Assembly (NCBI GenBank): GCA_000002435.2
Contig: CM018793.1
Strand: one strand, 5' to 3'
From: Giardia intestinalis
Lineage: Eukaryota
DNA: 64,000 bases
The position numbers were made by a program, and so were the translations under genes. The notes below the pieces were generated by a model. That model did not search any database. It was given only the letters and a program-made list of their open reading frames with translations, and was not told the origin of the DNA. Positions 17,603 through 40,621 of this stretch are shown one piece after another (position 1 is the first letter of the stretch; each line of letters begins with the position of its first letter).

Positions 17603-17618
17603 TTGTTAATATTTGCGT

Positions 17619-22042: not shown

Positions 22043-22544
22043 GACAGTTTATTTTCAAAAATAAGACCAAGCGATTGGATTGAACGAGTGATTGGGCCGC
22101 ACCCTCAGAGGCTACAAGAGAGCACAGGCATCTGCCAGCCTCACTTCTCGAATCTGTGTTCACGACAGCAGACACGTCGTCCCATACACTGTGGAGCGCC
22201 CTTGCATGCGCTGGCATGGCGTCCCTGTCTGTCCTGGCCCGTTCGCGACTATCACGCATTACTAGTACTCTGCGCCAGCTCTCTCGACTGTGTAGTCATG
22301 GCAATTCCACGTGTGCACAGGCCATCTAGCAGCACTCGCCCGCGTCCTCTGCTCCTCCGCCACTCATCCACGCGGGCCATGCAGGGTCTAGTGGCCCTTC
22401 CAGCGCTGGCCACGTTGGTGCTCTCTTCTGATGCTGCATGCCCTACAGGATCACCCGTGCTCACCATATTCCTAGAACCCATCACGCACCAGGGGGCTCC
22501 CTCGCAATTGGTGCCCAGAAAGTCGCGAGCAGGATTCATCGGCG

Positions 22545-22561
22545 CGTTTACTACCTAAGTC
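22545..22561 (-). promoter_or_regulatory. Extended VSP poly(A) signal (left copy).
   Basis: The reverse complement reads tgACTTAGGTAGTAAAC, overlapping the TGA stop, matching the ACTYAGRTAGTRAAY element described for Giardia VSP transcripts. Confidence 0.7.
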
Positions 22562-24836
22562 ATGCCTTCCCTCTGCATATGAACCACCAGCAGAGGAAGC
22601 CCACAAGGCCAGCCACGACGACCACCACGGCGACGGAGATACCTGCTATGGCCCCCGTGGAGAGCCCGCTACTCTTGTTGGCGCCAGAGGACACACACTT
22701 GTCACCCTCCAGACTGTAGTCGTCCCCGCACTGACCGCACTTGTTCTCCTCGCTGCACCTGACGCACCCGTCGATACTGCAGGGGATGCACTTCGTTCCG
22801 TCTGTGTTCGGTCTCTGGTCTTTACTGGTACAGGCCTCGCACTTGCCGCCTGCTCCACAGTGCGAGCATCCGTCAATGGTACATGTGAAGCACCCGCTCC
22901 CAGCCAGGTTGGGTTTATTATTGCCGCTACACGCTGTGCACGTGGCAGGGGCCATGCCAGGAGCCTCTAGCGCTGCTGGGGCCGTGCATGCTGTGCAGCC
23001 ATATACCCCCACATATGCCTTAGCGGTGCTGCCAGCCCCTATCACTGTGCCAAGGGGGTTCTCGCAGGCCAGGACAGACTGATCAGTATTGGATGCCCCC
23101 GGGACCAGGAAGTACCGGCTGTTCTCGCTGGGGGCGGTGCACCTCCCTCCCTCGGCAGTCTTGCACATGTGGCTGCCAGGAGCCTTCTGAGTACTGTAGC
23201 AGCCGCCCATGTACAGGAAGTACCCGGCAGCACACTGGGTGCAGACGCCATTGGCACAGGTGTTGTCACCCTTAGTTCCTGTGCAGACGCCATCGATGGG
23301 GAACGTGGCGGGGTCTCCGCACAGCGAGCAGTACTGGGAGAACGCCCCGGCGCTGTCAACGACGACCGCCCCGCAGGCCCCAGACGTCCCCCCGCAGGCC
23401 GTGGGGTCCTCGCAGGCCTTTGTGCACTTCACCGGATTGGTTCCCTCCTTGCGATAGTTGGGCTTACAGGAGTTGCAGGTCAACGAGCCAGCGAAGGTGC
23501 ACGTTGCACACCCATCGACTCCATCTGTCGGGTTATCACAGGGGACGCATGTGCCGGGGGAAGTGCCCCCTCTCAAGAAGAACCCGGTCTTGCAGGTTTG
23601 GCATTTGGTCTTGTCAGCTTTCTCAGAGCAGGTTGCGCAGTTCTCGCCACAGGCGTCACATGTGAAGCCGCTGTTGGTGTTCTTGATGTACCCCTCCAGG
23701 CACTCTGTGCAGGTCGGCGGTGTGGCGCCAGTCCTCGAGCACTTCTTACAGCCGACGATGCCCTGGTTCTTCTTCTCTTGCTCTGTCACTGTGTCGCTGC
23801 ATAGAATACACGCTGTTGCGTCGTCTTTCATGAATAGCCCACTATCGGTGGCTTTGCAGCCGTCGTCTGTCTTTTCCACGCACGTCGTCGTCCCGTCGGC
23901 AGCAGTTCTTACCAGCTTCCCGTTACAATCGGTGCACCTCGGCTTTCCCGTGGCGTCACTATATTCGCATGCCGCGCACCCAGCTATGTCAGTAGCGCAG
24001 GCCTTGCACTCGTCTGCTTTTGGGTCTGCATAGCTATCACTACCACATCCACCAGCCTCTACACACTCAGTGCCCTTCAGGAACTTCCCCCCAAGGCAGG
24101 CGGTGCACTGGGTCGGCGTAGCAGACTCACACGTCAAACAGCCGGGTCCGCATTGCACACATGCACCATCCTTCGTAGCGTACCCTCCTTGGCATGCAGT
24201 GCACGTGGCAGCCCCTGTACCGCCACCTGGCGCCGTGCATGTGTAGCAGCCCGCCACCCCCGTGACTCCGTCTCGCGGAGTGACGTCTGAGCAAAGCACG
24301 CACTCGTTGCCAGGGGCTACTGGGCTGGCCGGGTTCTGGAATAGATACACAGCGTCTGCCTTGCAGGTGGTGCACACCCCCTTGTCGGCCGCCGTGCAGA
24401 TCTCAGACCACTGGCTCGTCTTGTAGCACCCGCCCATGAAGAGGAAGTACCCGTCCCCGCACTTTCCGCAGGCAGTATCCGAGCCCGCCAACGCGGTCCC
24501 GTCTGCCCTGGTGCACCCGGCCGCCGCGGCCTGGGGGGAGCCGGGGGGCCAGCAGAAGCCGCCGACCGGGACGCCCCCGGCCCTGCACTCGGTGCAGATC
24601 TCGGAGTACCCGACCGTCTCGCACTTGTCGGTCTGGCAGCTCGCGGCATGGTCTCCGTCTGGCTGATAGGCCGCCGCGAGTGTGACTGCAAGCGTGGTTC
24701 CTACACACAGCAGTGGGTATCGCCTCAGAGGGCCCGCCTCCGCCACCTGCTGTGTACCGAATGTTGTGCTTGCAATGGGGAGTGCATGTTGAGATGTGGT
24801 CGATAGGCGCCCTGCAGACCCTGTGGTGGGCGGCAC
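22560..24836 (-). CDS. VSP: Variant-specific surface protein (VSP), left copy, with an atypical N-terminal extension.
   Basis: Cysteine-rich (about 12% Cys) with many CXXC motifs. Two GGCY motifs. TM followed by a CRGKA C-terminus. Extended VSP poly(A) signal ACTTAGGTAGTAAAC overlapping the stop. Unlike the right copy, the N-terminus (MPPTTGSAGRLSTTSQH...) is not a canonical signal peptide. Confidence 0.85.
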   Translation of the reverse strand: MPPTTGSAGRLSTTSQHALPIASTTFGTQQVAEAGPLRRYPLLCVGTTLAVTLAAAYQPDGDHAASCQTDKCETVGYSEICTECRAGGVPVGGFCWPPGSPQAAAAGCTRADGTALAGSDTACGKCGDGYFLFMGGCYKTSQWSEICTAADKGVCTTCKADAVYLFQNPASPVAPGNECVLCSDVTPRDGVTGVAGCYTCTAPGGGTGAATCTACQGGYATKDGACVQCGPGCLTCESATPTQCTACLGGKFLKGTECVEAGGCGSDSYADPKADECKACATDIAGCAACEYSDATGKPRCTDCNGKLVRTAADGTTTCVEKTDDGCKATDSGLFMKDDATACILCSDTVTEQEKKNQGIVGCKKCSRTGATPPTCTECLEGYIKNTNSGFTCDACGENCATCSEKADKTKCQTCKTGFFLRGGTSPGTCVPCDNPTDGVDGCATCTFAGSLTCNSCKPNYRKEGTNPVKCTKACEDPTACGGTSGACGAVVVDSAGAFSQYCSLCGDPATFPIDGVCTGTKGDNTCANGVCTQCAAGYFLYMGGCYSTQKAPGSHMCKTAEGGRCTAPSENSRYFLVPGASNTDQSVLACENPLGTVIGAGSTAKAYVGVYGCTACTAPAALEAPGMAPATCTACSGNNKPNLAGSGCFTCTIDGCSHCGAGGKCEACTSKDQRPNTDGTKCIPCSIDGCVRCSEENKCGQCGDDYSLEGDKCVSSGANKSSGLSTGAIAGISVAVVVVVAGLVGFLCWWFICRGKA

Positions 24837-25192
24837 TCGGCCTTCCTAGAAGCTATGCTCCCAGTAGATGGCTACAGTGAGCAAGCCCTGACTCGTCTGG
24901 CTTCAGTTCCGTACGTAGTTTATTGCTCAGTCGATTGTGAACAGCCCTTGAGGCCCGGTGCCCTAATCCGGTATTGGGGATCTGACTATGTAACACGCCA
25001 CTGAAGTAGAGTGGGTGTTTCCAAAAGCGCGTGACTTGATGCAACTCTCCAGTGCATCGGTTCGCCCTACCACGGGGGATAGCCGGGGCTGGCCTGGACA
25101 GGGCTTTTCTCTCGTACCGATCAGTTCACAGGTTTCCTTCTTATGTTTACAACATACTAATAAATAAGCCAAGCCAGTCCTAGGCACACCGC

Positions 25193-28100
25193 ATGCTGAT
25201 TCTCCTGTGTGCTGCTGCATGTCTCGCCGAGGCGTGCGGGACAGGACCTGCATGTGTTAACGGAGACTGCGCCTACGGGGACGGAGCACACTTCTGCCAG
25301 TGCAGGCGGGGCTGGGCGGGGGCTGCGTGCGATGCTCCCCGTGCAGGGTTCTGCAGGGTAACTACTAATACTGGCAAGGCGTCTACAGACAGGGCCGTCA
25401 ACTACGCCTGCCTCGTGAACGGGACGGAGTGCACAGGGTCGAGCAAGTGCACCTACTACGCGGGGGCGTACTCGTGCGACCCCTGTCCCGATGGCTTCGT
25501 GTCCTACGAGGGCGAGTGCCTGCCGAGGGGCTGCTTCAACACCGACGACTTCTCAAACCAGGAGGCAACGAAGGCCCCCTGCAACGGCCGCGGCCGCTGC
25601 CTCCTGAAGGACCCCGGGCTGGCCGGGCTGAGTGCTGACGACTACGCGTGCGACTGCTACCCGATCTACCGCGGGGGCCTCTGCCAGTCGTGCGACGACG
25701 CCAACGCGATCGCTACAGAAAGCTCTTCGTCTGACGCCCTCCCTACGTGCAATGCGCGGGCCTGCCAGGACTCGGATGGCATCGTGTGCTCAGGCCAGGG
25801 AACGTGCACCCTCGACGTGGGCCTCGATCGCGAATCGTACCGCTACCGCTGCAAGTGCAATGATGGCTACACACGCGTTGGGCACAGGTGCGTCAGGACG
25901 GAGTGCGTGGCCACGATTGACGGGTCCCCGGTCGTCTGCGGGGGCTTCGGGAAGTGCACAGATGAAGGAAACAACGGGGTGTTCAGATGTGTTTGCGATT
26001 CGGATGCAGTCCAGGTCGATAAGTTTTGCACATATTCCGCGTGCACAGACGAGTCCCGCTCAAAGATCTGTGGCGGAGTGGGCGCGTGTGTGCGCAATGG
26101 CGCTGGCTATAGTTGCGATTGCCGAGGGCTTGCCACGGGCGACCTCTGCGATACTTGCACTGACAAGTCTGCTAAGATAAATGGCACCTGTGTTCCAGTG
26201 GGGTGCCTCACTTCAAACAACCAGGAATCATGCAAGAACGGAGGAACATGTGTCAAGTCCAACGGCGAGTACCACTGCCGCTGCCCGGACATGCTCTTGC
26301 CGTCGACGGAGAGTGCACGTCCCCCGCGTGCATGGACGAGGAACTGGGGAAGGTCTGCTCGGGGCACGGCACGTGCAAGACGGACGATCTACGAAATATA
26401 CAATGCACTTGTGATCAGGACTATACCTACATCGCTCCGGGGCGTTGCATCTTGAGCACTTTGGTAGATAGCCCTGCCACGGTTTGCAGTGACCATGGAC
26501 GCATTGTCGTTAGTGCTGAGGCTCCTGATACGATGACGTGCCAGTGTTCGCCTATCCACACAGGAGCTAAGTGCGCAGAATGTGATCAACAGAACGCGCA
26601 AATGATTGGCGAGAAATGTATTGCAAAGAAGTGCATTGTGCAGCAACAGCCACCGGATCCACAGCCCAGTCTGCGCACGGCTACTGCTCAGGATATCTGC
26701 GGGAACACAGGCACGTACACCACTTATGGTGATCCGAGCAATCCGTTCATCACATGCGTCCCTAAAGATGCTGATAGTGGAAATGTCTCCGCCTACAACG
26801 GCACCTTCTCTGCTAAACCTGGATGTGTATTTATCAGTAAGATAGACAAGACAAGAAGATTCTTTTGTGGATTCCTTGAGAATATAACAGAAAACCTGTC
26901 AACTGGTAACTTGCCTACGTGCGCTAAACCTTCCGAAAAACCCGATCTGCCTGAAACATGTACTCACTGTCCAACTGACTTTCACCTTGTACACTTTGGG
27001 GAAAACAATAGCACATGTATGCACAAGAGTTGTCACGATGGCAAATCCAGTCATATGTGGTACAATTACTGCGGCGGCGTGGGAGACTGTATTCAGAAGA
27101 AGGATAAAAGCGGATACGAGTGTGATTGTGGGACTGCTGCTAAATGGGATCCAAATTTGAAGGCGTGTGTTACTGATGCATGCAAGCTCAACAAGAGTCT
27201 TGCTGGCCCCTATGCACCAGACTACTGTATTCCTCAGTCTACCTTTACACTCGAATGCACTGTCGGACGGGACGCAACGTGGCAGTGTAATTGCACTGGG
27301 GACTATGTTACGTACAACAAGACGTGCATTTCAAAGAGTAAGAACGCTGATCCAAAGACTCAGCGAGCAAGGGGACTCTGTGGCGGCCCCGGGGCGGGAT
27401 ATATAGACAGTACTGGAACCTGCGTCTGCAGCAATGGCTTCCTCAAGATCGGTGACATGTGCTACAGCTACGACTGCCTGCCAGTTGGCATATCAGATAA
27501 CATAAGGAATCCGGATATCAACGTGCTTGTCTGCTCCGGAAAGGGGGTCTGCGCATACAACCAGCTGACTGGCCGGTACGGCTGCGAGTGCAGCGACGGA
27601 CTGGAGGCCTTCGGGGGCTACTGCACTCATCCAGGATGCGCCGGAAAGGTAATGCATAACGGAGAAATTAAGTATGTTGAGTGCAAAATCTACGATGGAA
27701 CAACTGGAGATTGTACAAACGATAAGGGCACATATTCCTGCAAGTGTACTACTCCGTATAGATCTGTCAATGGGATCTGTGTTCATCAGCGTTGCGTATC
27801 GTATGATAACGTCTATTGCGGAGGAGATGTCCTGGCTGCATGCGTGCAGGGGAGTAATTACTATTACGGGTGTGTCTGCTCCGAAGGCTATGAGAGGGGC
27901 CAGCTCAATTCGGAATGCATTCCAAGTAAGTGTGTTTACAGAAGGCTGCTGAGTGATCCCACTATTGCATGCAATGGGTTAGGAACATGTGGCGGAGAAG
28001 GATCTTTGTTGAAGAATAGGCGGTGTGAGTGCAAGTCTGGTGCTAAGCTAGTCACACTTAGAGATGTGAATGGGGAGTTGAGAGAAACATGTATATTAAG

Positions 28101-30249
28101 TGAGTGCATTTCTAGTGAGGACGGAGTGGAACCGCCGATTATCTGTGGAGGACTAGGCAGTTGTGGGTCCACAGGATGCGTATGCGATCTGGGGACAAAG
28201 TTATTTAAAAAGGCTTGCTTTGGCATCAACTGCTTTATTAACACCGTAGATGATAGCGGACAACTTGTTGAGTCTGTGTGCGGTGGCGAGACCGTTGGGG
28301 TGTGCACAAAGATAGCGTCGCACGGCGATCGTCGAGACTACGCTTGTAAGTGCAAGGACCCGAAGCCTGACGAGTATGAAGAACTTGATGGGTTCTGTCT
28401 ACCAAAAGCTTGCATATTTGAAATCACAACCTTGACTAATCAGCAGGTGAGGACGATGTGCGGTGGAAAGCAGTTTGGAACATGCGTTCTTAATGCTACT
28501 CAATCATCCAAGTCATACTGTAAGTGCATAAATCGATATGACATTATTCAAATAACAAATGGAAAGTGTATGAAGAAAACCTGTCTTAGCGACTCTCTTT
28601 CTGGAGGTCCGGAGGGATACGTTGAATGTTCTGGACATGGGAAGTGTATAGGGGATCATATTGTGGGGTACTCGTGCAATTGTGACGAAAATTATCAAAC
28701 GGTTGCAGACGATCGCCGTTATTTGTGCGTACCAGCTGTCTGTGTTGTATCAGAGACAAATTCCAGTACTATATGCAACGGAAGAGGGACCTGTCAGTTC
28801 AAGACAGACCCAGGAAAGTGCGAGTGTAGGCCTGGGTATGATGGTACCAAATGTGAGACGTGTGCAAATGGCTACAAGGAACACACAGATGCACAGTGCT
28901 ACCTCAATGGCTGTCCGGCAGACAATTGTGGCACGGAGGAAAATACTAGCGTAGGGGCTTGCCAATTTAGCGGAAACAGTTTTGCTTGCGTCTGCGTCAA
29001 CTCGAGCTTCGTCGTTGACAGTGCTAGCAAGAAGTGCCGAAAATCCAGATGCGTTTGGTCGGATCCATACGATCAGACAGAAAAAACGTGCTATGGCATG
29101 GGTACGTGCAATGATAACGGCGAGGACACTGGGGCGTGTGTTTGCAACCCCGGGACAACCCTAGTCGGGACAAACATCTGTGTTTATAGCCAGTGCATCT
29201 CGGATGGAAGCGACCCCAAAGCAATATGCAAGGGGCGCGGGACATGCGTAGAGGGCCCTGTCGCCGGGACAGGACTGTGCAGATGCGACAGCAGCAGATA
29301 CCGCACAGACAAGAAGACCGGCCAGTGCTTTGTCAAGGAGTGCTTCGGGGCACACGAGAGCATCCTGGCCGAGGTCTGCGATGGCGGTGGAACATGCAGT
29401 GAAGACACTAAAAAGTGCAACTGTAGCGTAGACGGCTTCCAGAGCCTCGACGGCCAGAACGGCTGCGTGCACAGCAGCTGCGTCTCGTCGAACAACAAGC
29501 TTTGTAGCGGCTTTGGGGCCTGCGAGAAGACCGGTGACACCTACGGCTGCCTGTGCGCAAGTTACTATACTCTGGTCGACAAAGACTGCATCCCCACAAG
29601 GTGTCTCAAGGACGGGAAAGTCTGCAACGGCGGCGGCACGTGCTCCGGCGAGGGATCCTCTGCGACCTGTAGCTGCAACCAGGGCTGGGCTTCGCTGAAT
29701 AACCTCTGCTACCCGGCAGCCTGCGTTTCCAGTGGGACGCTCTGCGGGGGGAATGGCAACTGTCCACTTTCCACAGATAGTACATGCGAGTGCAAGTATG
29801 GGTATGAAAGTGTTCTTGACCAGCTCTGTATCAGCAGCCAGTGCGTCCAGCGCGGCACCGACGGCACCGTGACGATCTGCGGGGGCAACGGCAGGTGCGT
29901 GTCTGAGAACGGCGTGACTCCCAGCTGCGTGTGCAACGAGGGCTTCTCTCTCACAAGCGACTTCGTCTGCGGAGTCCCTGCTCCATCCAACAAGTCATCA
30001 AGTACCATAACGATTGCAGTCGTGGTCGTCGTCCTCCTCGTCCTCGTTGCAGTGGCCGGCTTCCTCGTCTGGTGGTTCGTGATACGGCCCAGGAAGAGCG
30101 GTGAGTTGAGGGAGCGCGCCCCGCGGAAAGGCCCTAGCTTTAGTGGCTCGCAAAAGCTCAAGAAGCAAGCAAGCTCCAAGGCGTCGCTCCACGCCACTGC
30201 GCCCCTACTGAGCCGGTCATCTCATGCCGGTTCTAGTGTCCAGCTCTAG
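25193..30249 (+). CDS. HCMP: High-cysteine membrane protein (HCMP, EGF-like/CXC-rich, about 1,680 codons), encoded as two overlapping ORFs (25193-26455 and 26203-30249) joined by an apparent -1 frameshift near 26288. Possible pseudogene or sequencing error.
   Basis: Signal peptide MLILLCAAACLAEA. Dozens of EGF-like Cys modules (CxCxxGY..., GxCxC) continue seamlessly across the frame change (...NGEYHCRCPD | GHALAVDGECTSPAC...). C-terminal TM IAVVVVVLLVLVAVAGFLVWWFVI followed by a 56-aa tail with no CRGKA. Confidence 0.75.
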
Positions 30250-31534
30250 TTCGCCGCCATCCATGCAAGATATTACAGCATGCACGAGTTGGCCCTCCAA
30301 AACTGTAAATCTGGGTATAAGACTCACTCAGCTCGAGTAGAGGAATCATCTACTGAGAGTAATTGTCCCTCGCCTGAAGCGTGTCCAGACGTCTCACGGG
30401 CAGCAAGCCTGGCCCTCTGAGGGTGGGGTGGTTGTAGGTAGCAAGCAGGGACTCTCCTCCACTGGTGCAAAGGGACGACCAGGGGCCCCGTGCGGTCGTC
30501 GGTGCCCGTGCCTCCGTGTCTCGTGCAGCGCAAGCTGGAGATCAGACCAGCCCGGCGACCAGTGCAGAGCCCGACAAGTGCAAGGCGGTGGGCGTGGGTG
30601 TCATCCAGCAATCAGAGGGATACCACAGCGAGAGGACAGGGGCACATACGGACACCACCCACCCGGTCCCCATCAGGAGCCCCCTATCAGTCCTCTTCTA
30701 CCCACTAGCTGGACCGGGACCCAGGGACTGCAACTGTAGGAGCGCTGCCCGGGACACAGCCGGACGGACACCGAGGGGCCCAGCCAACGGGGAGCCCCGA
30801 TGGCAGCAGTTGTGATAAATGGGAGCATCTAAAAGGACAGCGGCCAGAGCCTCACCCACCGTGAAGCGAGGGACCTCTAGCAAACCACACGAGCCTGTGA
30901 GAAGGCCAGGGCTTTAGACGCACACTCTCAGATAGCGCACGTCCCCGCGGAGCAACCGAGGAAGGCAAAAGACTCTGGATACAATACTAGAGAGAAGCCC
31001 CTGTTTGCTGTCTACAACCAACTCTCGCCCTCAGACTGGCCAGGAATTGAACGAGAAGTTATTCGTGAGACTCCTAGATCACGCTCAGATGGGGGCTTAG
31101 CAGCACAGTATAAACGGATATCAGTGTCTAGGGGAGCAGCCTGTTTGGCGTTGGCCGACTTAGTCTTGAGCAGAGCCATCCTCTCTAAGACGACCTGTAT
31201 AAAGAGTGAGAGCAATAGCAAAGCATCAGGATAGTGATCGCCAGTTGGGTGCGGTAGAACACGTGATAGTTACGGGTGTCACATACAAGAAGGCTGTGGG
31301 CACTATGGTAGAGGACAGCACTCAATACTCCAGAGCTGGATGCCACTGCGCCCTAAGTACTGGTAGAGATGCGATCTGACAGTCAGCACTCTCCACTGGG
31401 CACGTATTGGACAGCCTTTTGAGATGGAAGTTGATGATAATCGAGATTGACTGGTAACTCTAAAAACAGAGCTTGTTCACCAGAAGAGTGCGCTGCCACC
31501 AGCAGAGCTTTATCACCATCTGTGTCGCACTATA

Positions 31535-33691
31535 ATGTTGCTGATTGCATTGCACCTTGCGACAAGCATACTCGCGGCGCCTTGCCAGCCAGACGGAGAC
31601 CATGCCGCGAGCTGCCAGACCGACAAGTGCGAGACGGTCGGGTACTCCGAGATCTGCACCGAGTGCAGGGCCGGGGGCGTCCCGGTCGGCGGCTTCTGCT
31701 GGCCCCCCGGCTCCCCCCAGGCCGCGGCGGCCGGGTGCACCAGGGCAGACGGGACCGCGTTGGCGGGCTCGGATACTGCCTGCGGAAAGTGCGGGGACGG
31801 GTACTTCCTCTTCATGGGCGGGTGCTACAAGACGAGCCAGTGGTCTGAGATCTGCACGGCGGCCGACAAGGGGGTGTGCACCACCTGCAAGGCAGACGCT
31901 GTGTATCTATTCCAGAACCCGGCCAGCCCAGTAGCCCCTGGCAACGAGTGCGTGCTTTGCTCAGACGTCACTCCGCGAGACGGAGTCACGGGGGTGGCGG
32001 GCTGCTACACATGCACGGCGCCAGGTGGCGGTACAGGGGCTGCCACGTGCACTGCATGCCAAGGAGGGTACGCTACGAAGGATGGTGCATGTGTGCAATG
32101 CGGACCCGGCTGTTTGACGTGTGAGTCTGCTACGCCGACCCAGTGCACCGCCTGCCTTGGGGGGAAGTTCCTGAAGGGCACTGAGTGTGTAGAGGCTGGT
32201 GGATGTGGTAGTGATAGCTATGCAGACCCAAAAGCAGACGAGTGCAAGGCCTGCGCTACTGACATAGCTGGGTGCGCGGCATGCGAATATAGTGACGCCA
32301 CGGGAAAGCCGAGGTGCACCGATTGTAACGGGAAGCTGGTAAGAACTGCTGCCGACGGGACGACGACGTGCGTGGAAAAGACAGACGACGGCTGCAAAGC
32401 CACCGATAGTGGGCTATTCATGAAAGACGACGCAACAGCGTGTATTCTATGCAGCGACACAGTGACAGAGCAAGAGAAGAAGAACCAGGGCATCGTCGGC
32501 TGTAAGAAGTGCTCGAGGACTGGCGCCACACCGCCGACCTGCACAGAGTGCCTGGAGGGGTACATCAAGAACACCAACAGCGGCTTCACATGTGACGCCT
32601 GTGGCGAGAACTGCGCAACCTGCTCTGAGAAAGCTGACAAGACCAAATGCCAAACCTGCAAGACCGGGTTCTTCTTGAGAGGGGGCACTTCCCCCGGCAC
32701 ATGCGTCCCCTGTGATAACCCGACAGATGGAGTCGATGGGTGTGCAACGTGCACCTTCGCTGGCTCGTTGACCTGCAACTCCTGTAAGCCCAACTATCGC
32801 AAGGAGGGAACCAATCCGGTGAAGTGCACAAAGGCCTGCGAGGACCCCACGGCCTGCGGGGGGACGTCTGGGGCCTGCGGGGCGGTCGTCGTTGACAGCG
32901 CCGGGGCGTTCTCCCAGTACTGCTCGCTGTGCGGAGACCCCGCCACGTTCCCCATCGATGGCGTCTGCACAGGAACTAAGGGTGACAACACCTGTGCCAA
33001 TGGCGTCTGCACCCAGTGTGCTGCCGGGTACTTCCTGTACATGGGCGGCTGCTACAGTACTCAGAAGGCTCCTGGCAGCCACATGTGCAAGACTGCCGAG
33101 GGAGGGAGGTGCACCGCCCCCAGCGAGAACAGCCGGTACTTCCTGGTCCCGGGGGCATCCAATACTGATCAGTCTGTCCTGGCCTGCGAGAACCCCCTTG
33201 GCACAGTGATAGGGGCTGGCAGCACCGCTAAGGCATATGTGGGGGTATATGGCTGCACAGCATGCACGGCCCCAGCAGCGCTAGAGGCTCCTGGCATGGC
33301 CCCTGCCACGTGCACAGCGTGTAGCGGCAATAATAAACCCAACCTGGCTGGGAGCGGGTGCTTCACATGTACCATTGACGGATGCTCGCACTGTGGAGCA
33401 GGCGGCAAGTGCGAGGCCTGTACCAGTAAAGACCAGAGACCGAACACAGACGGAACGAAGTGCATCCCCTGCAGTATCGACGGGTGCGTCAGGTGCAGCG
33501 AGGAGAACAAGTGCGGTCAGTGCGGGGACGACTACAGTCTGGAGGGTGACAAGTGTGTGTCCTCTGGCGCCAACAAGAGTAGCGGGCTCTCCACGGGGGC
33601 CATAGCAGGTATCTCCGTCGCCGTGGTGGTCGTCGTGGCTGGCCTTGTGGGCTTCCTCTGCTGGTGGTTCATATGCAGAGGGAAGGCATGA
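31535..33691 (+). CDS. VSP: Variant-specific surface protein (VSP), right copy, with a canonical signal peptide.
   Basis: Starts MLLIALHLATSILAAP (typical VSP signal peptide). Identical to the left copy from QPDGDHAASCQTDKCETVGY onward. CXXC and GGCY motifs. Ends ...GFLCWWFICRGKA. Confidence 0.9.
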   Translation: MLLIALHLATSILAAPCQPDGDHAASCQTDKCETVGYSEICTECRAGGVPVGGFCWPPGSPQAAAAGCTRADGTALAGSDTACGKCGDGYFLFMGGCYKTSQWSEICTAADKGVCTTCKADAVYLFQNPASPVAPGNECVLCSDVTPRDGVTGVAGCYTCTAPGGGTGAATCTACQGGYATKDGACVQCGPGCLTCESATPTQCTACLGGKFLKGTECVEAGGCGSDSYADPKADECKACATDIAGCAACEYSDATGKPRCTDCNGKLVRTAADGTTTCVEKTDDGCKATDSGLFMKDDATACILCSDTVTEQEKKNQGIVGCKKCSRTGATPPTCTECLEGYIKNTNSGFTCDACGENCATCSEKADKTKCQTCKTGFFLRGGTSPGTCVPCDNPTDGVDGCATCTFAGSLTCNSCKPNYRKEGTNPVKCTKACEDPTACGGTSGACGAVVVDSAGAFSQYCSLCGDPATFPIDGVCTGTKGDNTCANGVCTQCAAGYFLYMGGCYSTQKAPGSHMCKTAEGGRCTAPSENSRYFLVPGASNTDQSVLACENPLGTVIGAGSTAKAYVGVYGCTACTAPAALEAPGMAPATCTACSGNNKPNLAGSGCFTCTIDGCSHCGAGGKCEACTSKDQRPNTDGTKCIPCSIDGCVRCSEENKCGQCGDDYSLEGDKCVSSGANKSSGLSTGAIAGISVAVVVVVAGLVGFLCWWFICRGKA

Positions 33692-33706
33692 CTTAGGTAG
33701 TAAACG
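33690..33706 (+). promoter_or_regulatory. Extended VSP poly(A) signal (right copy).
   Basis: tgACTTAGGTAGTAAAC, overlapping the stop codon at 33689-33691. Confidence 0.7.
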
Positions 33707-34208
33707 CGCCGATGAATCCTGCTCGCGACTTTCTGGGCACCAATTGCGAGGGAGCCCCCTGGTGCGTGATGGGTTCTAGGAATATGGTGAGCACGGGTGA
33801 TCCTGTAGGGCATGCAGCATCAGAAGAGAGCACCAACGTGGCCAGCGCTGGAAGGGCCACTAGACCCTGCATGGCCCGCGTGGATGAGTGGCGGAGGAGC
33901 AGAGGACGCGGGCGAGTGCTGCTAGATGGCCTGTGCACACGTGGAATTGCCATGACTACACAGTCGAGAGAGCTGGCGCAGAGTACTAGTAATGCGTGAT
34001 AGTCGCGAACGGGCCAGGACAGACAGGGACGCCATGCCAGCGCATGCAAGGGCGCTCCACAGTGTATGGGACGACGTGTCTGCTGTCGTGAACACAGATT
34101 CGAGAAGTGAGGCTGGCAGATGCCTGTGCTCTCTTGTAGCCTCTGAGGGTGCGGCCCAATCACTCGTTCAATCCAATCGCTTGGTCTTATTTTTGAAAAT
34201 AAACTGTC

Positions 34209-36806
34209 ATGGCCGACAATGGCAATAACGCATTCAGTCTTTCTGCAGTGACTCCCACCATCCCACCGTTCACCTTTAAGGAGCTCCACGAGCGGCTGAA
34301 TGGCGTGCTAGGAAGAGATGCCACAGGTGTAGTCTACTCCCTCGAAGGTTATCCGAGTCTCGCCGTGAAGGAGATCTTGCTTGAAGGCTTGGATAGGAGC
34401 AGCGTGGATACTATCAAGCTTGAGCTGGCCGCTCTTTTTACCCTCTTTCACCCGGGAGTCATCAAGTACCATCAAGTTGTCGAAGACGAAAGCTTCTTCT
34501 ACGTCGTCACGGACCGGCACGACAAGACCCTTGAGCGCCTCCTCACTGAGCACAAGCGAAGGAAGATCCCCGTGTCTGCCGGCGTGATTCTCTCTGTCAT
34601 GAAACAGCTCACCGCCGCCCTCGCCTACCTCCACAGCGTCAATGGAGCAAACACTAGAGGCCTCGTCCACCGCGACCTCAGGCCTGCCAATATATTTATC
34701 AACGCAGACGGAGAGCGCTTCGTCATCGCCGACTTCGGCCTCTGCAGGGACGCCCTGTGGAGTGGGAGCACTCTCATAGGAATAATGGCATACGTTGCCC
34801 CCGAGGTGCTCCTCCACAACGAGGCCAGCCCTGCCTCCGACGTATGGAGCCTCGGGGTCATCATTTATGAATTAGTAACTCTGAGGAGACCGGACTTCTT
34901 GGGGGGCAAGGAGCCGGCAGAGGTCTTCATCGATGGGTGGAGGCCGGACCTGAGCGGTGTCACTGATGGCTTCATAAAGAGTGTTCTGGAGCGGATATTC
35001 GTATTGGAGCCAGAGAGGAGGCCGACGGCCAGGGAGCTGCACGAGACGCTCGCTACATTCGACATCCCAGTTGGTGAGTTGGGAGGTCAGTGCGTGATGC
35101 TGAAGTATAAGTGCGGATCCTTGGAGGCTGCGCTGAATGGCGCTAACGCCAGGATCGCGCTGCTGGAAGAGGATGTTAAGATTAAATCTACTAAGATCGA
35201 CGCACTTGAAGACCAAAGTAAGGAACATCTAGCTATGATTAAGGCACTGGAGAATAGGCTTGCACAGTTCAGTGACAGGATGAACACGACTGACCCTCAG
35301 TCCAGCCTCTTTTTGCTGCCAAGGCTGATGCGTGCCGCGCATACGAATAGCACGGAGACCGTCTGGATGCTGCTTGAAGAAAGACTCGGCGTTGGTCAGC
35401 GTGACGCACAGGGGATGACGGCCCTCATGCACGCGGCCCAGCAGGGGCACGTTGATCCCGTCGAGTTGCTTGTTGGGGAGGAAAACGGCCTCCAGGACAA
35501 GAACGGCTGGACTGCGCTCATGCACGCCTCATACAACAACCATCCTGAGGTAACCAGGATTCTCATTCTTCACGAGTGTAGAGAGACAAACAAGAATAAT
35601 CAAACTGCTTTGATGATCGCCGCAGAGAAAGGCCATGCAGAAGTTGCATCCCTTCTGGCCTCACATGAAAAGGGTCTGGCTGACAATGAAGGCAAAACTG
35701 CCTTAATGGTTGCCGCACAAAAGGGGAATCTTGAAATGGTAAAAATCCTTCTTGGTCACGAAAAGGGAATAAAGGATAAGCAGAATCACAACGCCTTATA
35801 CTACGCTCTTAAGAATGGACATCCAGAACTCGTTGAGATCCTCGTAGAGCACGACGATCCTACAGATAAAGATGATATCACGGCACTCATGAGGGCAGCA
35901 GCCAGAGGAGATACTGAGATGGTAAAACTGCTTATACCAATCCAGAAAGGAATAAAGGATAGCAGTGGGAACACAGCGTTCGTGCATGCTCTCAATAATG
36001 ACCGTACAGACACTGCTATGATTCTTCGTGAATACGAGGCTTCATCCTGGACCCAACTCATGTGTGCTTCCTTCATTGGAGACATTGAAACAGTCAGGAA
36101 TCAGCTCTCTGACAAGGAAAAGAAGAATGATGATGGCGATACAGCTCTGACGCTTGCTGCACAAGCGGGCTACGAGGACGTCGTAGAGATTCTCAGCCCA
36201 ACAGATGGCAGAGGTACTACGGCTCTTATGCGGGCGGCAGATACAAACGATGTAGAGGTGCTGAAAACACTTATATCTCTTCAAAAAGGACGAAAAGCAG
36301 AATATGTCAAAATAGATAAATGGGAAATATACGAAGGAACAGCACTTATGAGAGCGGCAATATATGGATACACAGAAGCGGTGAGACAGCTAGTAGCTCA
36401 CGAAAGTGGAATGAAAGACAGTGACGGTCAGACTGCTCTCATCCTTGCTGCATATAACGGTCATCTAGAATGTATTAGATTACTCTTGAGTGAGGAGGGG
36501 GGCATGCAGGACAATAAGGGTAGAACTGCTCTCATGGGTGCAGTACGTAATAATCATCCAGAATGTGTCAAGCTACTTCTGGGCAGGGAGGCGGGGATGC
36601 ATGATAAGTACGGCTGGACTGCTCTTATATGGGCAATAGATAATAACAACATAGAGTGTGTAAGACTTCTTGCAGAGAAGGAAGGAGATGTTAGAAGAAC
36701 CCAGTACAATACAGAACCCCATTTAACTTGTGCATGTACAGAGACACCCCTCGACATGGCCAGGAAGAAAGGCTATGAGGAGATAGTGGCCATCCTTACA
36801 AAGTAG
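34209..36806 (+). CDS. NEK: NEK-family protein kinase with ankyrin repeats (right copy, identical to 19445-22042).
   Basis: Identical 865-aa translation. AGTAAAT poly(A) signal at 36813-36819, 7 nt after the TAG stop. Confidence 0.85.
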   Translation: MADNGNNAFSLSAVTPTIPPFTFKELHERLNGVLGRDATGVVYSLEGYPSLAVKEILLEGLDRSSVDTIKLELAALFTLFHPGVIKYHQVVEDESFFYVVTDRHDKTLERLLTEHKRRKIPVSAGVILSVMKQLTAALAYLHSVNGANTRGLVHRDLRPANIFINADGERFVIADFGLCRDALWSGSTLIGIMAYVAPEVLLHNEASPASDVWSLGVIIYELVTLRRPDFLGGKEPAEVFIDGWRPDLSGVTDGFIKSVLERIFVLEPERRPTARELHETLATFDIPVGELGGQCVMLKYKCGSLEAALNGANARIALLEEDVKIKSTKIDALEDQSKEHLAMIKALENRLAQFSDRMNTTDPQSSLFLLPRLMRAAHTNSTETVWMLLEERLGVGQRDAQGMTALMHAAQQGHVDPVELLVGEENGLQDKNGWTALMHASYNNHPEVTRILILHECRETNKNNQTALMIAAEKGHAEVASLLASHEKGLADNEGKTALMVAAQKGNLEMVKILLGHEKGIKDKQNHNALYYALKNGHPELVEILVEHDDPTDKDDITALMRAAARGDTEMVKLLIPIQKGIKDSSGNTAFVHALNNDRTDTAMILREYEASSWTQLMCASFIGDIETVRNQLSDKEKKNDDGDTALTLAAQAGYEDVVEILSPTDGRGTTALMRAADTNDVEVLKTLISLQKGRKAEYVKIDKWEIYEGTALMRAAIYGYTEAVRQLVAHESGMKDSDGQTALILAAYNGHLECIRLLLSEEGGMQDNKGRTALMGAVRNNHPECVKLLLGREAGMHDKYGWTALIWAIDNNNIECVRLLAEKEGDVRRTQYNTEPHLTCACTETPLDMARKKGYEEIVAILTK

Positions 36807-36812
36807 CCCTAT

Positions 36813-36819
36813 AGTAAAT
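36813..36819 (+). promoter_or_regulatory. Giardia poly(A) signal AGTRAAY downstream of the NEK stop.
   Basis: tagccctatAGTAAATgg. The mirror copy is at 19432-19438 on the minus strand. Confidence 0.55.
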
Positions 36820-37450
36820 GGCCAGCCTCTAGTAGTGCGCTTCCAACCACGTGGCAGTTACACTAGCAGGAATCTATAGAGGGCTTGTTCTGGATGTTAC
36901 TAGCTTGATGAGTGTGTGATTATTGAGTTGGACGCCAGTGGACTACTAGTACAACTATAATAGAGACCCAGAGGGGGAGGACGACAGCCATTCCAGAGCA
37001 GGAGATTTCGAGCATCCTCCGATGTCCTATGTATCTGTGCTTCCTGGCCGGTATCGGATGGCCGGCTTACTGGGACGTTGGAGGGATCGGTGATCCTGAC
37101 AGTATCAGCAGAACAGGCGAGCTGGCGGGGATGTTCTGTTCAGTACGTGTAGCCACGAGTGCTAATCCAGGGGTGCACAGCGGGATGTGCGGCCGTTCAG
37201 ACGGAGCCGTAGCTCTGCTCCATTGGCGTAGCCTACAATGTGCACTAGCGTAGGTATATCCCGCCAGTGAGCTTGGAAGCCGCCCCTTCATTGGATAAGC
37301 AGCCCAGAGCCCCTCAGTCACAACGCCTTCTTGTTCCAATGATGTGGTGTGTTGTACGGCAGAAAGCCACCGGTGTGGACTCGGAAGTAGTCCCAGCCAA
37401 GATAGGCTCTATTCTGTGCACGGTGAAGTCCGGCTGCTTTACACCCCAGG

Positions 37451-37750
37451 TTGGGGGTAGCAAAAAATCCCCCACTGTTGTGGGCAAAGAGCCAGCCCCC
37501 GGCAACTGAGGACATTTCCCTGAACATGGATCCCTGTCTTTCTGCGCTGAAAAGGACGCCGCCGTCGTTAACTGCAGAGACGCTCACGACGCTGGTACGG
37601 GCCTCGGATGACCCCGACGTAATCTCCGCCCTGTCGTCCCCTGCTGTCATCGATGCCCTGTCTGCAAAGGCCAGGTCCACGCCAGAGCGGGAGGAGGAGC
37701 TCACGGAGGTTCTCCTCTCGCAGCAAGTCTTTCTGGCTGCCATGGATTGA
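37451..37750 (+). pseudogene. Truncated duplicate (97 codons) of the 5' end of gene 17619-18800, created by the repeat boundary.
   Basis: The translation is identical to the left-arm gene through ...LSQQVFLAA, then diverges at 37741 and terminates after MD*. Confidence 0.6.
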
Positions 37751-37888
37751 GTGCAGAAGAACCTGAACTGCGGCCATTAAAAATAGTTAGCGGAGAAGAT
37801 TACTTTGTTCAGTGCAACATCTTGTTCAGTTTATTCAGCCTTCTATCGTAGTTGTATTTCTCCCGCAAAATGCCCATAGATTCACAGA

Positions 37889-40621
37889 CTATATGTGAGT
37901 GGTCAGAGTCTCCTCTATATCGCTGTTGAGGAGAAGTGAGGTCGCAGAGGAAGACACAGAAAGAGCATCCTGTGGAGGCCTGTCAACTTTTTCTGCGGGT
38001 GGACAAATACCAGGGCTAATTACTTTTCCGAAGAGATCATTGTCTCGAGGAAGTGTCGCATGATTCTGTGCAATCCAAAAGTTCATGCTTTGACCTGCAA
38101 CCTTTCCATTGCCAAGGGCCTTGATGACGGTTGCAGCCCCAGTCTGAACATCTCCTGCGCAAAAGACACCTGGGACAGAAGTCTCGAAGTTCTCATCAGT
38201 AATCACAAGACCTTTGTCATTTATCTTCAAATTTTCTGTCGTCTTCACGATAATGTTATTAGGCCCAAATCCTACCGCAACAATAATCATACTACAGGCA
38301 AAAAAGGAAAATTCTCCATCCAAGGGCACAATAGCTCCTGCTTCGAAGGAGTTAACCTGGCACCTTAGTCCCTTTATGCCGGTACGGCTATCGTTAGGGA
38401 TTATTTCTAAGGGCGAATTTAAGGTAGCAAAGTAGACTCCTTCTGCTTCGGCACTCTCGATCTCCTCAAAACGCGCAGGAGAATCCTGTAGACGACGACG
38501 ATATACCACTACAACATCAGCTCCTAGCCTTCGTGCAGACGAAGCACAATCCATTGCAACATTTCCACACCCAATGACCACGACCTTTTTGCGTGGCTCG
38601 TTACTGTCAGCTCTGCTAATGAATGGAAATACACAGTTGTCTTCTAGGTTACACCTCTTCAAAAACTCGTTTGCTGTGAAGACACCTGGAAGGTCTTCTC
38701 CAGGGATGCCAAGGCTACGTGGTATTCCTACACCTGTACCGATGAATATGGCAGTGTACCCCTCGCTTTGGAGTTGTGGGATAGTGACGTCCTTCCCCAC
38801 GACAGTCTTTGTCTTTATATCGACGAGCCCCAAGCGCTTAACACTATTTATTTCGTGAGCAACTATTTGCTTTGGCAACCGGAACTTAGGGATTCCGTAA
38901 TTTAATACACCACCAGGCTGATCTAGTGCCTCAAAGATTGTAACATAATGACCCGCAAGTGCACACTCCCGGGCGGCTGCAAGACCTGTCGGGCCAGAGC
39001 CAATTATAGCAACTTTATACCCGGACAAAACTATCTCAGGCATATTTTTACCATCCTTAAGTGATTCATCCTCCAAATTGTTTTCGCGCACGTAGTCGGC
39101 AACAAACCGCTCTAGCTTCCCAATGCCAACAGGCTCTTTACCAGTACGACAAAGGATACACCCGTAATTTCCCTCTGCAGACTGGCACTGGTTCTCTTGA
39201 GGGCAGACACGTCCAGTAACAGACGGACAATTATGTGCAGTCTTTATGATTTTATATGCTCCAAGGAAGTCCCGCTCAGTGATCTTTTTAATGAACTGGG
39301 GTATTGGAACTTGTACTGGACAGCCCCTGACACACATAGGCTTCTTACACTGCAAGCACCGTGACGCCTCCATCAGTGCCATTTCTGGAGTGTAGCCTAG
39401 AGATATTTCGGCCCAGTTATGACAGCGAACTTTAGGATGCTGCATAGGCATTGGTGTCTGTGTGGGAGCAGGCTTTACTGAACGTACAGATGGACCCTTC
39501 TTGTGTGCATTACCAGCTGAAGATGTTGTAGACGAATAAATACTTGTCCCAAGTCTAAACTTCTCCCAAGAAATACGATGAGCGTCAACTTCTGGACCGT
39601 CGACAAAGACATAGCTAGTGCTAATCTTACCTTTGGAAAAGCTGGGATTAATATTGCTTCTGACAAACTCATCCAAATTAATGCATGGAATATGGGAAGG
39701 GACGTGTTCCTTACGAAGAGCATATTTATCATAAATGCTCGTGAGATACGGGAGCTCGTTATACAATTCTACCCGGAAAGTCCCGAGAAGCATGGACCCA
39801 TCGACTGTAACGGTGCTGAGAAGACCGATAGTGCGAATGCCGTAATCCCTAGTGAGTTCAGAAATCTTACGAAGCAATGGATAAGGTCCCATCACGTAGA
39901 CAAGGTCCACAGGTACATACTTCTGAGGAGTCTTCAGAGTTTCTTGAAGAAAATCTTCGAATACCCCTACAAGTCCCTTTTCCTTCTTTTCTGGAGGGAT
40001 TTCATCAGCAATCACCACTGAAAGAGCATCGACTGTTTCTGCAAGCTTGTTTTCTCCAACGAGCTGGTCCTTTGACGGAGCACCGATAAAAGCAGATACG
40101 CTGTTACCGGGCAGCTGATGGATTGACCTAGCGTATAGCTGAACAGGACCAAGCCCAGCCCCTTCTGCAACTACTGCTACGTGGCCCATCTTTGCTGTAA
40201 TATCAGCCGCATGACCTAAGGGCCCAGTAATTGATGACAGACTCTGACCTTCAGCAAAGGATACTATCTTGCTTGTTGCATGCGTTATGGATGAACAAAT
40301 GAACGTGATGGTCTTCTTAACGGGATCACAGTCGCTGATAGGGATCGGAAGTCTTTCGGAGGGAGCATAGGCTTTGACTGTGACGAAGTGCCCGGCCTTA
40401 CTGGCCTCAGCAACTTCAGGAGCGTAGCATGTCAGCTCAACCGTCTCGGGGTCTTTCCAGAGAACAGTTCGTTTTACAATTGTAAACGGCTTGACACTTG
40501 GGGCTGTCGGAGCCACGCCTACAGAGCTCGGTGTTTTATCTGCTGGAGTAACGTATCCGTCGTTTTCAATACATATCGGCGTAGCAGTATGGCTCATATC
40601 ATCAGTTGTATTCTGCTTCAT
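37889..40621 (-). CDS. Glutamate synthase small-chain (GltD)/sulfide dehydrogenase SudA-like FAD/NAD(P) oxidoreductase, fused to an N-terminal ferredoxin-NADP reductase-like (SudB-like) domain (910 aa).
   Basis: C-terminal half has the dinucleotide fold VAIIGSGPTGLAAA followed by GGVLNYGIPKFRLPK, FIGTGVGIPRSLGIPGEDL and VVVIGCGNVAMDCA. Cys-rich Fe-S ligand clusters (CLQCKKPMCVRGCP, CPQENQC). N-terminal half has FNR-like YVMGPYPLL. Confidence 0.7.
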   Translation of the reverse strand: MKQNTTDDMSHTATPICIENDGYVTPADKTPSSVGVAPTAPSVKPFTIVKRTVLWKDPETVELTCYAPEVAEASKAGHFVTVKAYAPSERLPIPISDCDPVKKTITFICSSITHATSKIVSFAEGQSLSSITGPLGHAADITAKMGHVAVVAEGAGLGPVQLYARSIHQLPGNSVSAFIGAPSKDQLVGENKLAETVDALSVVIADEIPPEKKEKGLVGVFEDFLQETLKTPQKYVPVDLVYVMGPYPLLRKISELTRDYGIRTIGLLSTVTVDGSMLLGTFRVELYNELPYLTSIYDKYALRKEHVPSHIPCINLDEFVRSNINPSFSKGKISTSYVFVDGPEVDAHRISWEKFRLGTSIYSSTTSSAGNAHKKGPSVRSVKPAPTQTPMPMQHPKVRCHNWAEISLGYTPEMALMEASRCLQCKKPMCVRGCPVQVPIPQFIKKITERDFLGAYKIIKTAHNCPSVTGRVCPQENQCQSAEGNYGCILCRTGKEPVGIGKLERFVADYVRENNLEDESLKDGKNMPEIVLSGYKVAIIGSGPTGLAAARECALAGHYVTIFEALDQPGGVLNYGIPKFRLPKQIVAHEINSVKRLGLVDIKTKTVVGKDVTIPQLQSEGYTAIFIGTGVGIPRSLGIPGEDLPGVFTANEFLKRCNLEDNCVFPFISRADSNEPRKKVVVIGCGNVAMDCASSARRLGADVVVVYRRRLQDSPARFEEIESAEAEGVYFATLNSPLEIIPNDSRTGIKGLRCQVNSFEAGAIVPLDGEFSFFACSMIIVAVGFGPNNIIVKTTENLKINDKGLVITDENFETSVPGVFCAGDVQTGAATVIKALGNGKVAGQSMNFWIAQNHATLPRDNDLFGKVISPGICPPAEKVDRPPQDALSVSSSATSLLLNSDIEETLTTHI

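Follow-up and report, generated by a model that had tools for sequence, protein, structure and literature searches.

The open reading frame (ORF) at positions 37451–37750 of the window, the whole 64,000-nucleotide stretch of Giardia intestinalis WB DNA analysed here, is very probably a non-functional 5′ fragment of an HGH1-homologue gene. It marks the outer breakpoint of what we regard, with the same good confidence, as a real 6.15-kb inverted segmental duplication in an island of VSP, NEK and HCMP genes. Gene identities were assigned from exact matches to G. intestinalis WB proteins, and the features to which the text refers are as follows.

14161–16524, plus strand: ITFG1-like gene
16649–17602, minus strand: GL50803_86468
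17619–18725, minus strand: HGH1 homologue, intact, 368 aa (GL50803_137679, KAE8305954.1)
18511–24684: left arm of the repeat (perfect core 18519–24665), the source copy for the NEK and HGH1 part
19445–22042, minus strand: NEK kinase with ankyrin repeats, left copy (KAE8305955.1)
22560–24716, minus strand: VSP, left copy, the same as the right VSP from codon 18 on, with no ATG at the expected place
24685–31566: spacer of 6.9 kb, which holds GL50803_113268 and an ORF for an EGF-like high-cysteine membrane protein (HCMP)
25193–26455, plus strand: GL50803_113268
within 26203–30249, plus strand: the EGF-like HCMP ORF
31535–33691, plus strand: right VSP, 718 aa, with an ATG, a signal peptide and a CRGKA tail (KAE8305958.1)
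31567–37740: right arm of the repeat (perfect core 31586–37732), the derived copy, ending as a gene stump at the GltS 3′ flank
34209–36806, plus strand: NEK kinase with ankyrin repeats, right copy, identical to the left copy (KAE8305959.1)
37318–37743, minus strand: antisense ORF, 141 aa (GL50803_7198, KAE8305960.1)
37526–37750, plus strand: the stump, 74 aa (GL50803_28126, XP_001705328.1; 2007 gene set only)
37733–37740, plus strand: outer junction, a C at 37733 followed by TGGCTGC (37734–37740)
37741–37888: ancestral GltS 3′ flank, the target side of the junction
37889–40621, minus strand: glutamate synthase (GltS), the conserved right-hand neighbour

A repeat search revealed one inverted pair in the window, 18511–24684 and 31567–37740, with arms of 6174 nt. 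Compared base by base, the arms differ at six positions, every one of them near an end. Five mismatches belong to the inner end and all fall inside 31567–31585; the sixth, 18518/37733, lies 8 nt from the outer edge and is T versus C in the gene sense, a synonymous leucine change. The core of 6147 nt (18519–24665 and 31586–37732) is free of mismatches, and outside either arm end the identity in the same comparison is only random. A perfect core with random identity beyond both of its ends is not explicable by chance. Each arm contains two genes, a VSP and a NEK kinase, together with the 5′ end of the HGH1-homologue gene; an ORF for the VSP matches the Pfam family “Giardia variant-specific surface protein”. 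A preliminary description of this DNA had proposed a real repeat whose outer edge cuts through a gene, and the comparison bears out both the repeat and the two ORFs concerned. It had also placed that edge 291 bp inside the gene; the edge does lie within the ORF, but the true figure is 290 nt, with codon 97 straddling the edge. The region of about 16–38 kb, which contains the island between HGH1 and GltS, forms a GC-rich block (0.51–0.62 GC, against 0.43–0.47 in the flanks).

The two VSP copies, 22560–24716 (minus) and 31535–33691 (plus), are arranged head to head, and the inner boundary of the repeat falls within their signal-peptide codons. Both sides of this boundary are paralogous, and identity fades over 19 nt. 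The right VSP retains its own ATG and leader (31535–31585), which are carried by the right end of the spacer, and its first 17 codons are outside the perfect core. For the left copy, no in-frame ATG was found at the expected position and no protein accession was found; it is probably a pseudo-VSP. The region upstream of it at the inner end is colinear with a paralogue, L015.

At the outer end, the ORFs 17619–18800 (minus, 393 aa) and 37451–37750 (plus, 99 aa) both exist and have 97 codons in common. The lengths of 393 aa and 97 codons given previously for the intact gene and the stump need correction. The former counts from a TTG start produced by bacterial-code ORF calling, and the deposited protein, which begins at the first ATG, has 368 aa. 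Counted in the same manner, the stump has 74 aa (37526–37750), namely 72 shared codons plus Met-Asp. The breakpoint thus falls after codon 69 of the HGH1 homologue, or after codon 72 when the microhomology described below is counted. Judged by its sequence relationships, GL50803_137679 is a divergent HGH1 homologue. DUF384, the C-terminal motif, is matched by all six Giardia orthologues (best E 3.1e-8), the WB protein itself reaching 24.2 bits against a cut-off of 24.6, and a profile built from the orthologues matches yeast Hgh1 (6hb1) at the equivalent C-terminal position with an E value of 2.4e-5. DUF383, expected in the middle of the protein, was matched by none of the six orthologues at E ≤ 0.1 and was likely missed owing to divergence. 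The HGH1 homologue is transcribed in trophozoites (supplement, PMC4670223).

The exact position of the outer junction was examined against the 3′ flank of GltS in other lineages. The equivalent of 37733–37740 reads ATGGCAGCCGGAAT in P15 (assemblage E) and GCGCAGCCAGGG in L017 and L018, and all three flanks carry GCAGCC(G/A)G. The outer ends, written in the sense of GltS, compare as follows.

Target proxy, P15: ...TTATGGCAGCCGGAATGATTTTTTGC...
WB right junction: ...CCATGGCAGCCAGAAAGACTTGCTGC...
Donor, HGH1 antisense: ...GCTTGCAGCCAAAAAGACTTGCTGC...

The heptamer TGGCTGC (37734–37740) is identical to the donor at 18511–17, and the calculated probability that at least 7 nt are shared by chance is about 4e-4. 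Donor and target are thus identical over 7 nt at the breakpoint and only randomly similar beyond it, the target being represented by P15 and L017/L018 as proxies and not by the true ancestor. This reading depends on the GltS-flank motif GCAGCCAG; the intergenic DNA of L017–L019 is too diverged to be aligned reliably, and only the motif GCAGCCAGG at the expected place is usable there. Since the motif is already present in the flanks of P15 and L017/L018, the base at 37733 would be the flank’s own base, and the last 8 nt of the repeat (37733–37740) are most likely pre-existing target sequence with microhomology, not copied DNA. The mismatch that had been reported in the final 10 bp of the repeat is indeed present, at 37733, although it probably represents this target base and not a change within the copied DNA. 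The difference at 18518/37733 is fixed in A1 and A2, the left copy having T and the right copy C. The flank motif, taken together with a T/C difference that stays fixed while everything inside is homogenised, places the breakpoint between 37732 and 37733, followed by 7 nt of microhomology.

A different placement, which we consider unlikely, would set the junction between 37740 and 37741. The base at 37733 would then stem from a point mutation after the event or from a polymorphism already present in the donor, and the duplication would have arisen by another route, for instance fold-back or fork template switching, in which microhomology was not involved. The chr4 paralogues likewise have C at the equivalent of 37733, so that C was possibly the donor base at the time of copying, and the C could indeed be an old donor polymorphism instead of a target base. 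(The chr4-type locus is represented by DH contig L009, and the context of the WB chr4 paralogue by a 2.1-kb Logan contig only.) However, the occurrence of GCAGCC(G/A)G in the P15 and L017/L018 flanks means that the similarity predates the event, and the difference is fixed in both A1 and A2, with homogenisation of everything inside it. Moreover, target and donor share the motif even if the junction is placed there.

The preferred reading, a breakpoint between 37732 and 37733, leaves a stump that carries the 72 N-terminal residues of the HGH1 homologue followed by Met-Asp-stop and lacks the conserved C-terminal DUF384 motif. As the preliminary description had stated, the right arm repeats 97 codons and stops after two more: the left gene goes on with Ser-Arg-Ala where the right copy reads Met-Asp-stop. 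No KAE accession is attached to the stump’s sequence, and its sense ORF has not been kept in the current annotation. The stump does retain the HGH1 upstream region, the arm continuing beyond it across 640 nt of intergenic DNA to NEK and VSP, and transcription from this copied upstream region is plausible. The same description had named membership of a longer spliced gene as the finding that would overturn its reading. Neither strand of 37300–38000 contains a GTATGT 5′ splice site, a CT[AG]AC...AG motif or an AGTRAAY poly(A) signal; only TGTGAAT occurs, after the GltS stop. The idea that the stump is a piece of a spliced or longer gene was rejected, as no splice signals link it to one.

The antisense ORF appears to be a product of the same junction. 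The ATG of GL50803_7198 (37741–37743) is supplied by the target flank. The corresponding frame begins with LAA(K/R)K, and not with an ATG, in the left arm and on chr4; in P15 it contains indels and a stop. GL50803_7198 is probably an annotation artefact that owes its ATG to the junction, and both it and the stump are regarded, from these comparisons, as non-functional by-products. The identifiers GL50803_28126, 7198, 86406, 137679 and 40283 gave no match in the main text of papers, those of the stump and GL50803_7198 gave none in the supplements of the strand-specific RNA-seq paper, and the supplement of PMC4670223 lists as expressed only the two full-length paralogues.

Function at the junction can be imagined in several forms. 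In one of them, which is very unlikely, GL50803_7198 would be a lineage-specific gene born at the breakpoint, with an ATG from the GltS 3′ flank and a body antisense to the HGH1 5′ region, or a 74-aa peptide made from the duplicated promoter would interfere with HGH1; in a related proposal, recombination between the arms would flip the spacer and thereby switch which VSP copy receives the only start codon. The general proposal that the junction made a new functional gene, either a 74-aa HGH1 N-terminal peptide or the 141-aa antisense GL50803_7198, is highly improbable. It could draw on the retention of GL50803_7198 as a hypothetical protein in the current annotation, on the HGH1 upstream region kept by the stump and on the conservation of the junction from A1 to A2. 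Against this, in P15 the antisense frame is interrupted by indels and a stop, neither the left-arm nor the chr4 copy offers it an ATG, and the substitutions between WB and P15 over the first 215 coding nucleotides follow the HGH1 sense frame (20 at its third positions, versus 9 and 4 at the others). In addition, the stump lacks the only conserved motif of the family and is followed by no canonical poly(A) signal, and neither identifier occurs in the main text of papers or in the transcriptome supplements searched.

Evidence that the duplicated structure exists outside the current WB assembly comes from several independent data sets. In the 2007 Sanger annotation, the 368-aa and 74-aa proteins are both present in exactly this form. 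In an A2-like ENA contig, L003, the sequence runs from GltS across the junction into the stump. The DH (A2) contig L016 begins within the arm, 22 nt from its edge at the equivalent of 18533, and extends across the left junction. A second DH contig, L010 (6154 bp), covers 31570–37717 and is nearly one arm exactly, and five Logan short-read contigs from other isolates all end at 37708. The two outer junctions, which the preliminary description had offered as markers for validating the structure, are accordingly both present in independent assemblies. At the inner ends, the left junction is colinear over 7 kb with the paralogous HCMP–psiVSP unit L015 and is also found in an A2 ENA gene model, and the right junction lies in a complete in-frame VSP whose 5′ end is like that of P15 VSP678 across the boundary. 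Both inner junctions look natural by these comparisons.

These observations also bear on the proposal, which we rate as a very slim chance, that the inverted duplication is an assembly artefact, for example a single-copy segment whose orientation differs among the four genome copies and which was assembled as two arms. In its favour, the arms are identical and exceed short reads in length, and the order of the 2007 accessions (GltS 5324, stump 5328, NEK 5330, VSP 5332, 113268 5333) puts the GltS-side arm beside the left end of the spacer, unlike the window. Nevertheless, an inversion polymorphism cannot yield the fourth junction, from the right end of the spacer to VSP, and precisely this junction is a complete in-frame VSP that is homologous to P15 VSP678 across the boundary. 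The colinearity of the left inner junction with its paralogue and its presence in the A2 ENA contig, the recovery of both outer junctions in independent assemblies, and the DH arm contig, which breaks at both ends of the arm, all speak against an artefact, as does the origin of the WB assembly, which was made from PacBio reads and checked with optical maps (PMC7000408). Since four distinct junctions are not derivable from a single-copy segment in two orientations, mis-assembly is unlikely.

Two further observations concern the A2 contigs. The tail of L003 switches to chr4-type upstream sequence at 37044, which may reflect an error of contig joining or a genuine variant whose right arm is far shorter. 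A VSP on the DH contig that carries GltS (P0019) was considered as a candidate for the right arm; it belongs instead to a paralogous HCMP–psiVSP unit, 93% identical, elsewhere on the contig.

A real inverted duplication raises the matter of which side is ancestral, and gene order and orthologues agree on the left. The P15 contig L001 is colinear with the window from 21809 to 7612, with the order NEK, HGH1, 86468, ITFG1, annexin and onward, which is the left-arm arrangement. The 368-aa protein is 88% identical to its P15 orthologue and 71% and 68% identical to those of two further assemblages. The G. muris homologue (355 aa) aligns over residues 12–361 with 26% identity (E 6e-29), and the end-to-end alignment runs through residue 72 without interruption in every orthologue. 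The WB–P15 substitutions in the first 215 coding nucleotides, concentrated on third positions of the HGH1 frame, point the same way. The G. muris homologues of HGH1 and 86468 (86468, E 2e-43) lie immediately after GltS and on its strand. This adjacency of GltS and HGH1 indicates that the 19-kb stretch between them in WB is an island inserted between anciently adjacent genes, with which the GC content of the island, standing out from its flanks, is consistent.

On the GltS side, the P15 3′ flank is homologous to the window at 87.5% identity, but only up to 37725. Past that point, P15 turns to GC-rich sequence of an unrelated kind, with two VSP genes and neither a stump nor a NEK. A B-like isolate shows the same continuation as P15 across the 156 nt that its contig reaches, and likewise no stump or NEK there. 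An origin of the stump before the A/E split, followed by loss in P15, is unlikely, as the P15 flank continues like that of the B-like isolate and is not HGH1-derived. The absence of the right copy beside GltS in P15 and in the B-like isolate makes the event younger than the A/E split. The left gene is shown to be ancestral and the right copy derived, and the duplication is likewise shown to be specific to assemblage A and common to A1 and A2. The pre-duplication state is deduced from P15; this isolate has diverged by 12.5%, and its contigs stop within the island, short of the stretch between VSP678 and NEK.

The preliminary description had left two readings side by side, a duplication derived on the right and a left gene formed by fusion, and had suggested an orthologue comparison. 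Carried out on P15, two further assemblages and G. muris, this comparison identifies the left side as ancestral, and the first reading is upheld by P15 synteny, by the G. muris adjacency and by the lack of a stump after GltS in P15. The fusion reading, in which the 368/393-aa gene was made at 18511 and the short right ORF is the original gene, has geometry alone in its favour (a repeat edge inside the left ORF) and can be dismissed with near certainty, for the orthologues in P15, in two other assemblages and in G. muris have the same length and are continuous over the breakpoint, the C-terminal part of the left gene matches the HGH1 family, P15 synteny agrees with the left side, and the stump stops two codons past the junction, within the GltS flank.

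A sequence of events that would account for these features can be proposed. Reading rightwards, the ancestor would have carried four minus-strand genes (86468, HGH1, NEK and a VSP without a start codon), then the HCMP genes, a plus-strand VSP and the GltS 3′ flank, with the resident plus-strand VSP adjoining GltS as it does in P15 today. A break or stalled fork in this resident VSP may have led to invasion of the inverted, paralogous start-less VSP on the left. Such an invasion of one VSP by another would place the inner boundary in the signal-peptide codons and cause identity to decay gradually there. Copying would have taken in the body of the VSP, the NEK gene and the intergenic DNA, and then 69 codons from the start of HGH1, before the new strand was joined to the GltS 3′ flank at the 7-nt microhomology (TGGCTGC). 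About 5.7 kb of resident sequence would have been replaced in the process; P15 has such sequence at that place. Later gene conversion from arm to arm would have kept the arms identical up to the boundary between 37732 and 37733, and not across it. No difference separates the WB arms over 6147 nt; the WB and DH arms differ by 3.3% (up to 10% in VSP), the DH arms being collapsed in one contig, with their number and identity judged from contig breaks alone. The junction is common to A1 and A2, which makes the duplication older than the A1/A2 split, and continued arm-to-arm gene conversion, as we infer from these identities, is the simplest reading of the identical WB arms.

Inverted VSP duplications are well documented in this organism. 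In WB, Adam et al. (2010) found 14 inverted pairs of identical vsp genes, whose flanks are identical until an abrupt divergence 139–729 bp from the ORF and whose ORFs are separated by 2–4 kb (PMC2996952). Xu et al. (2020) reported 19 VSP pairs, duplications of up to 20 kb that make up 6.9% of the genome, pseudo-VSPs without start codons, and breaks of synteny at VSP-, NEK- and ankyrin-rich regions (PMC7000408). Inverted vsp repeats of this kind broke contigs in early assemblies (PMC2996952, PMC7000408). The present locus resembles these pairs in having head-to-head VSPs that are near-identical, with identity extending into the flanks until it diverges abruptly (PMC2996952, PMC7000408). Yet several differences are present. 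The arms are 6.2 kb long, against an ORF plus 139–729 bp, and they include a whole NEK gene and a fragment of a gene outside the family. The spacer measures 6.9 kb and holds GL50803_113268 and an HCMP-like ORF, whereas those of the published pairs are 2–4 kb of non-coding DNA or a reverse transcriptase remnant. The VSPs are identical only from codon 18, one of them having no start codon, whereas the published pairs are identical over their whole length; the abrupt outer divergence here comes 4.0 kb past the VSP stop, beyond NEK. This VSP pair is absent from the tables of Adam et al. (PMC2996952) and from Table 2 of Xu et al. (PMC7000408).

The stump itself is like the truncated duplicates found at the breakpoints of segmental duplications, in which a 5′ fragment keeps its upstream region and soon meets a stop in unrelated sequence. 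It differs from the usual fragments in lying at the edge of an inverted copy, not a tandem or dispersed one, and in nothing essential. Outgroups conserve the full-length parent gene and lack the fragment. Because the copy takes in upstream non-coding DNA as well as neighbouring genes, and a poly(A) tract is missing, it is not a retrocopy.

Junctions mediated by microhomology are known from MMEJ and from MMBIR/FoSTeS. The outer end resembles these in joining non-homologous DNA at a 7-nt identity, which here lies inside a partly similar patch of about 17 nt. The other end, in contrast, lies in true paralogous homology (VSP 5′ coding sequence), and no template insertions are visible. With one end in VSP homology and the other in microhomology, the event has the appearance of copying that was initiated by homology and finished without it. 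Arm-to-arm gene conversion also keeps the large palindromes of the human Y chromosome identical. The WB arms may be comparable, with 0 differences over 6147 nt against an A1–A2 identity of 96.7% and with the A2 arms in one collapsed contig; they span kilobases where the Y palindromes span hundreds of kilobases, and conversion is deduced here from the identities.

Collectively, the locus is an atypically large instance of the known inverted VSP duplications of Giardia, and the stump is an ordinary breakpoint pseudogene; nothing here would surprise a Giardia genomicist. For annotation, the stump should be treated as a pseudogene fragment and the left VSP copy as lacking a start codon, and the sequences of the two outer junctions are usable as markers for assemblage A. 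The locus offers a base-level view of a single duplication event, with VSP–VSP homology at one end and a 7-nt microhomology at the other, and illustrates how the body of a start-less pseudo-VSP can end up behind an intact VSP start. It is in keeping with a view of VSP/NEK/HCMP islands as places where ectopic copying and concerted evolution disrupt synteny.

The gene carried at the other end of each arm is a VSP gene. An ATG and a signal peptide are present in the right VSP copy only (31535–33691, plus strand), and both are located in the spacer, whereas the left copy (22560–24836, minus strand) has no start codon; no protein accession was found for the left copy. Thus, in each arm one end gene is intact and the other is crippled, in opposite senses.

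The outer part of the left arm also belongs to a second segmental duplication, a block of 3.06 kb, with sequence at the following positions:

Window 16150–19207 (also 37044–37740)
L009 9594–12651, the contig of the A2 isolate DH used as the chr4-type locus
L002 435–2097

The block contains the final 374 nt of the ITFG1-like gene, GL50803_86468, the HGH1 homologue, and 482 nt 5′ of the HGH1 ATG. A copy with 97.6% identity is present on the 2.76-Mb chromosome (GL50803_87519 and GL50803_40283). At the chr4-type locus of DH, the ITFG1-like gene is cut down to a 114-aa stump (L009 12277–12621); therefore, the boundary of the 3.06-kb block also interrupts a gene.

When the chr5 and chr4 HGH1 copies were compared (window 17619–19207 against L002), their divergence was found to step at the edge of the inverted repeat, with differences at 7 of 697 positions within the arm and at 31 of 892 outside it (Fisher p = 0.0014). 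In addition, A1–A2 divergence is higher across the whole 3-kb block (2–5%) than in its flanks. These two features point to gene conversion between the three copies. L003 (13578–14417), an A2-like ENA contig crossing the right junction, departs from the arm at window 37044, the exact edge of the chr4-shared block. Past this point it carries chr4-type upstream sequence that contains a VSP 3′ end and matches L009 at 96% identity. The switch reflects either a mis-join caused by the repeat or a genuine isolate whose right arm measures 0.7 kb.

Two open reading frames (ORFs) overlap the HGH1 stump at the right junction:

37318–37743, minus strand: GL50803_7198 (KAE8305960.1), 141 aa, antisense to the HGH1 stump and kept in the current reference annotation
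37568–37777, minus strand: GL50803_86406, a third overlapping ORF, from the 2007 gene set

The ATG of GL50803_7198 arises from the right junction. Since its reading frame is not conserved in the assemblage E isolate P15, GL50803_7198 probably represents an artefact of annotation. In the 2007 annotation, the accession order XP_001705324–5333 reads glutamate synthase (GltS), stump, NEK, VSP (a 216-aa model), and GL50803_113268. With this order, the arm on the GltS side adjoins the left spacer end, opposite to the window, which reflects either collapsed arms or assembly of a flip-flop isomer, in which the spacer has the reverse orientation.

The EGF-like high-cysteine membrane protein (HCMP) gene of the spacer (25193–30249, plus strand) is broken up into GL50803_113268, an ORF of 420 aa, and a 1238-aa model that overlaps it. 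The paralogues that share its 90% cluster are each one undivided protein of 1463–1687 aa, and the spacer gene is likely frameshifted or decaying. A DH unit consisting of an HCMP and a start-less VSP (L015 1509–8555, contig AHGT01000044.1) is a paralogue of window 22458–29507, with 93% identity and colinearity that runs through the left inner boundary. The unit lies close to the start of this 85.5-kb contig, which also carries GltS, and the gene after it encodes a different NEK kinase.

In G. muris (L014 10001–14782), GltS and the homologues of HGH1 and GL50803_86468 lie directly side by side on a single strand, separated by gaps of 6 nt. The WB VSP/NEK/HCMP island (window 18.8–37.9 kb) is inserted between these conserved neighbours, GltS and HGH1/GL50803_86468. 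The block at about 16–38 kb containing the island has a GC content of 0.51–0.62, compared with 0.43–0.47 in its flanks. Two short-read contigs of a B-like isolate (L012 and L013) stop 156 nt past the GltS stop codon, and the GC-rich sequence at their ends is common to P15. In other assemblages as well, a further repeated element thus appears to begin at this point, about 150 nt downstream of GltS.
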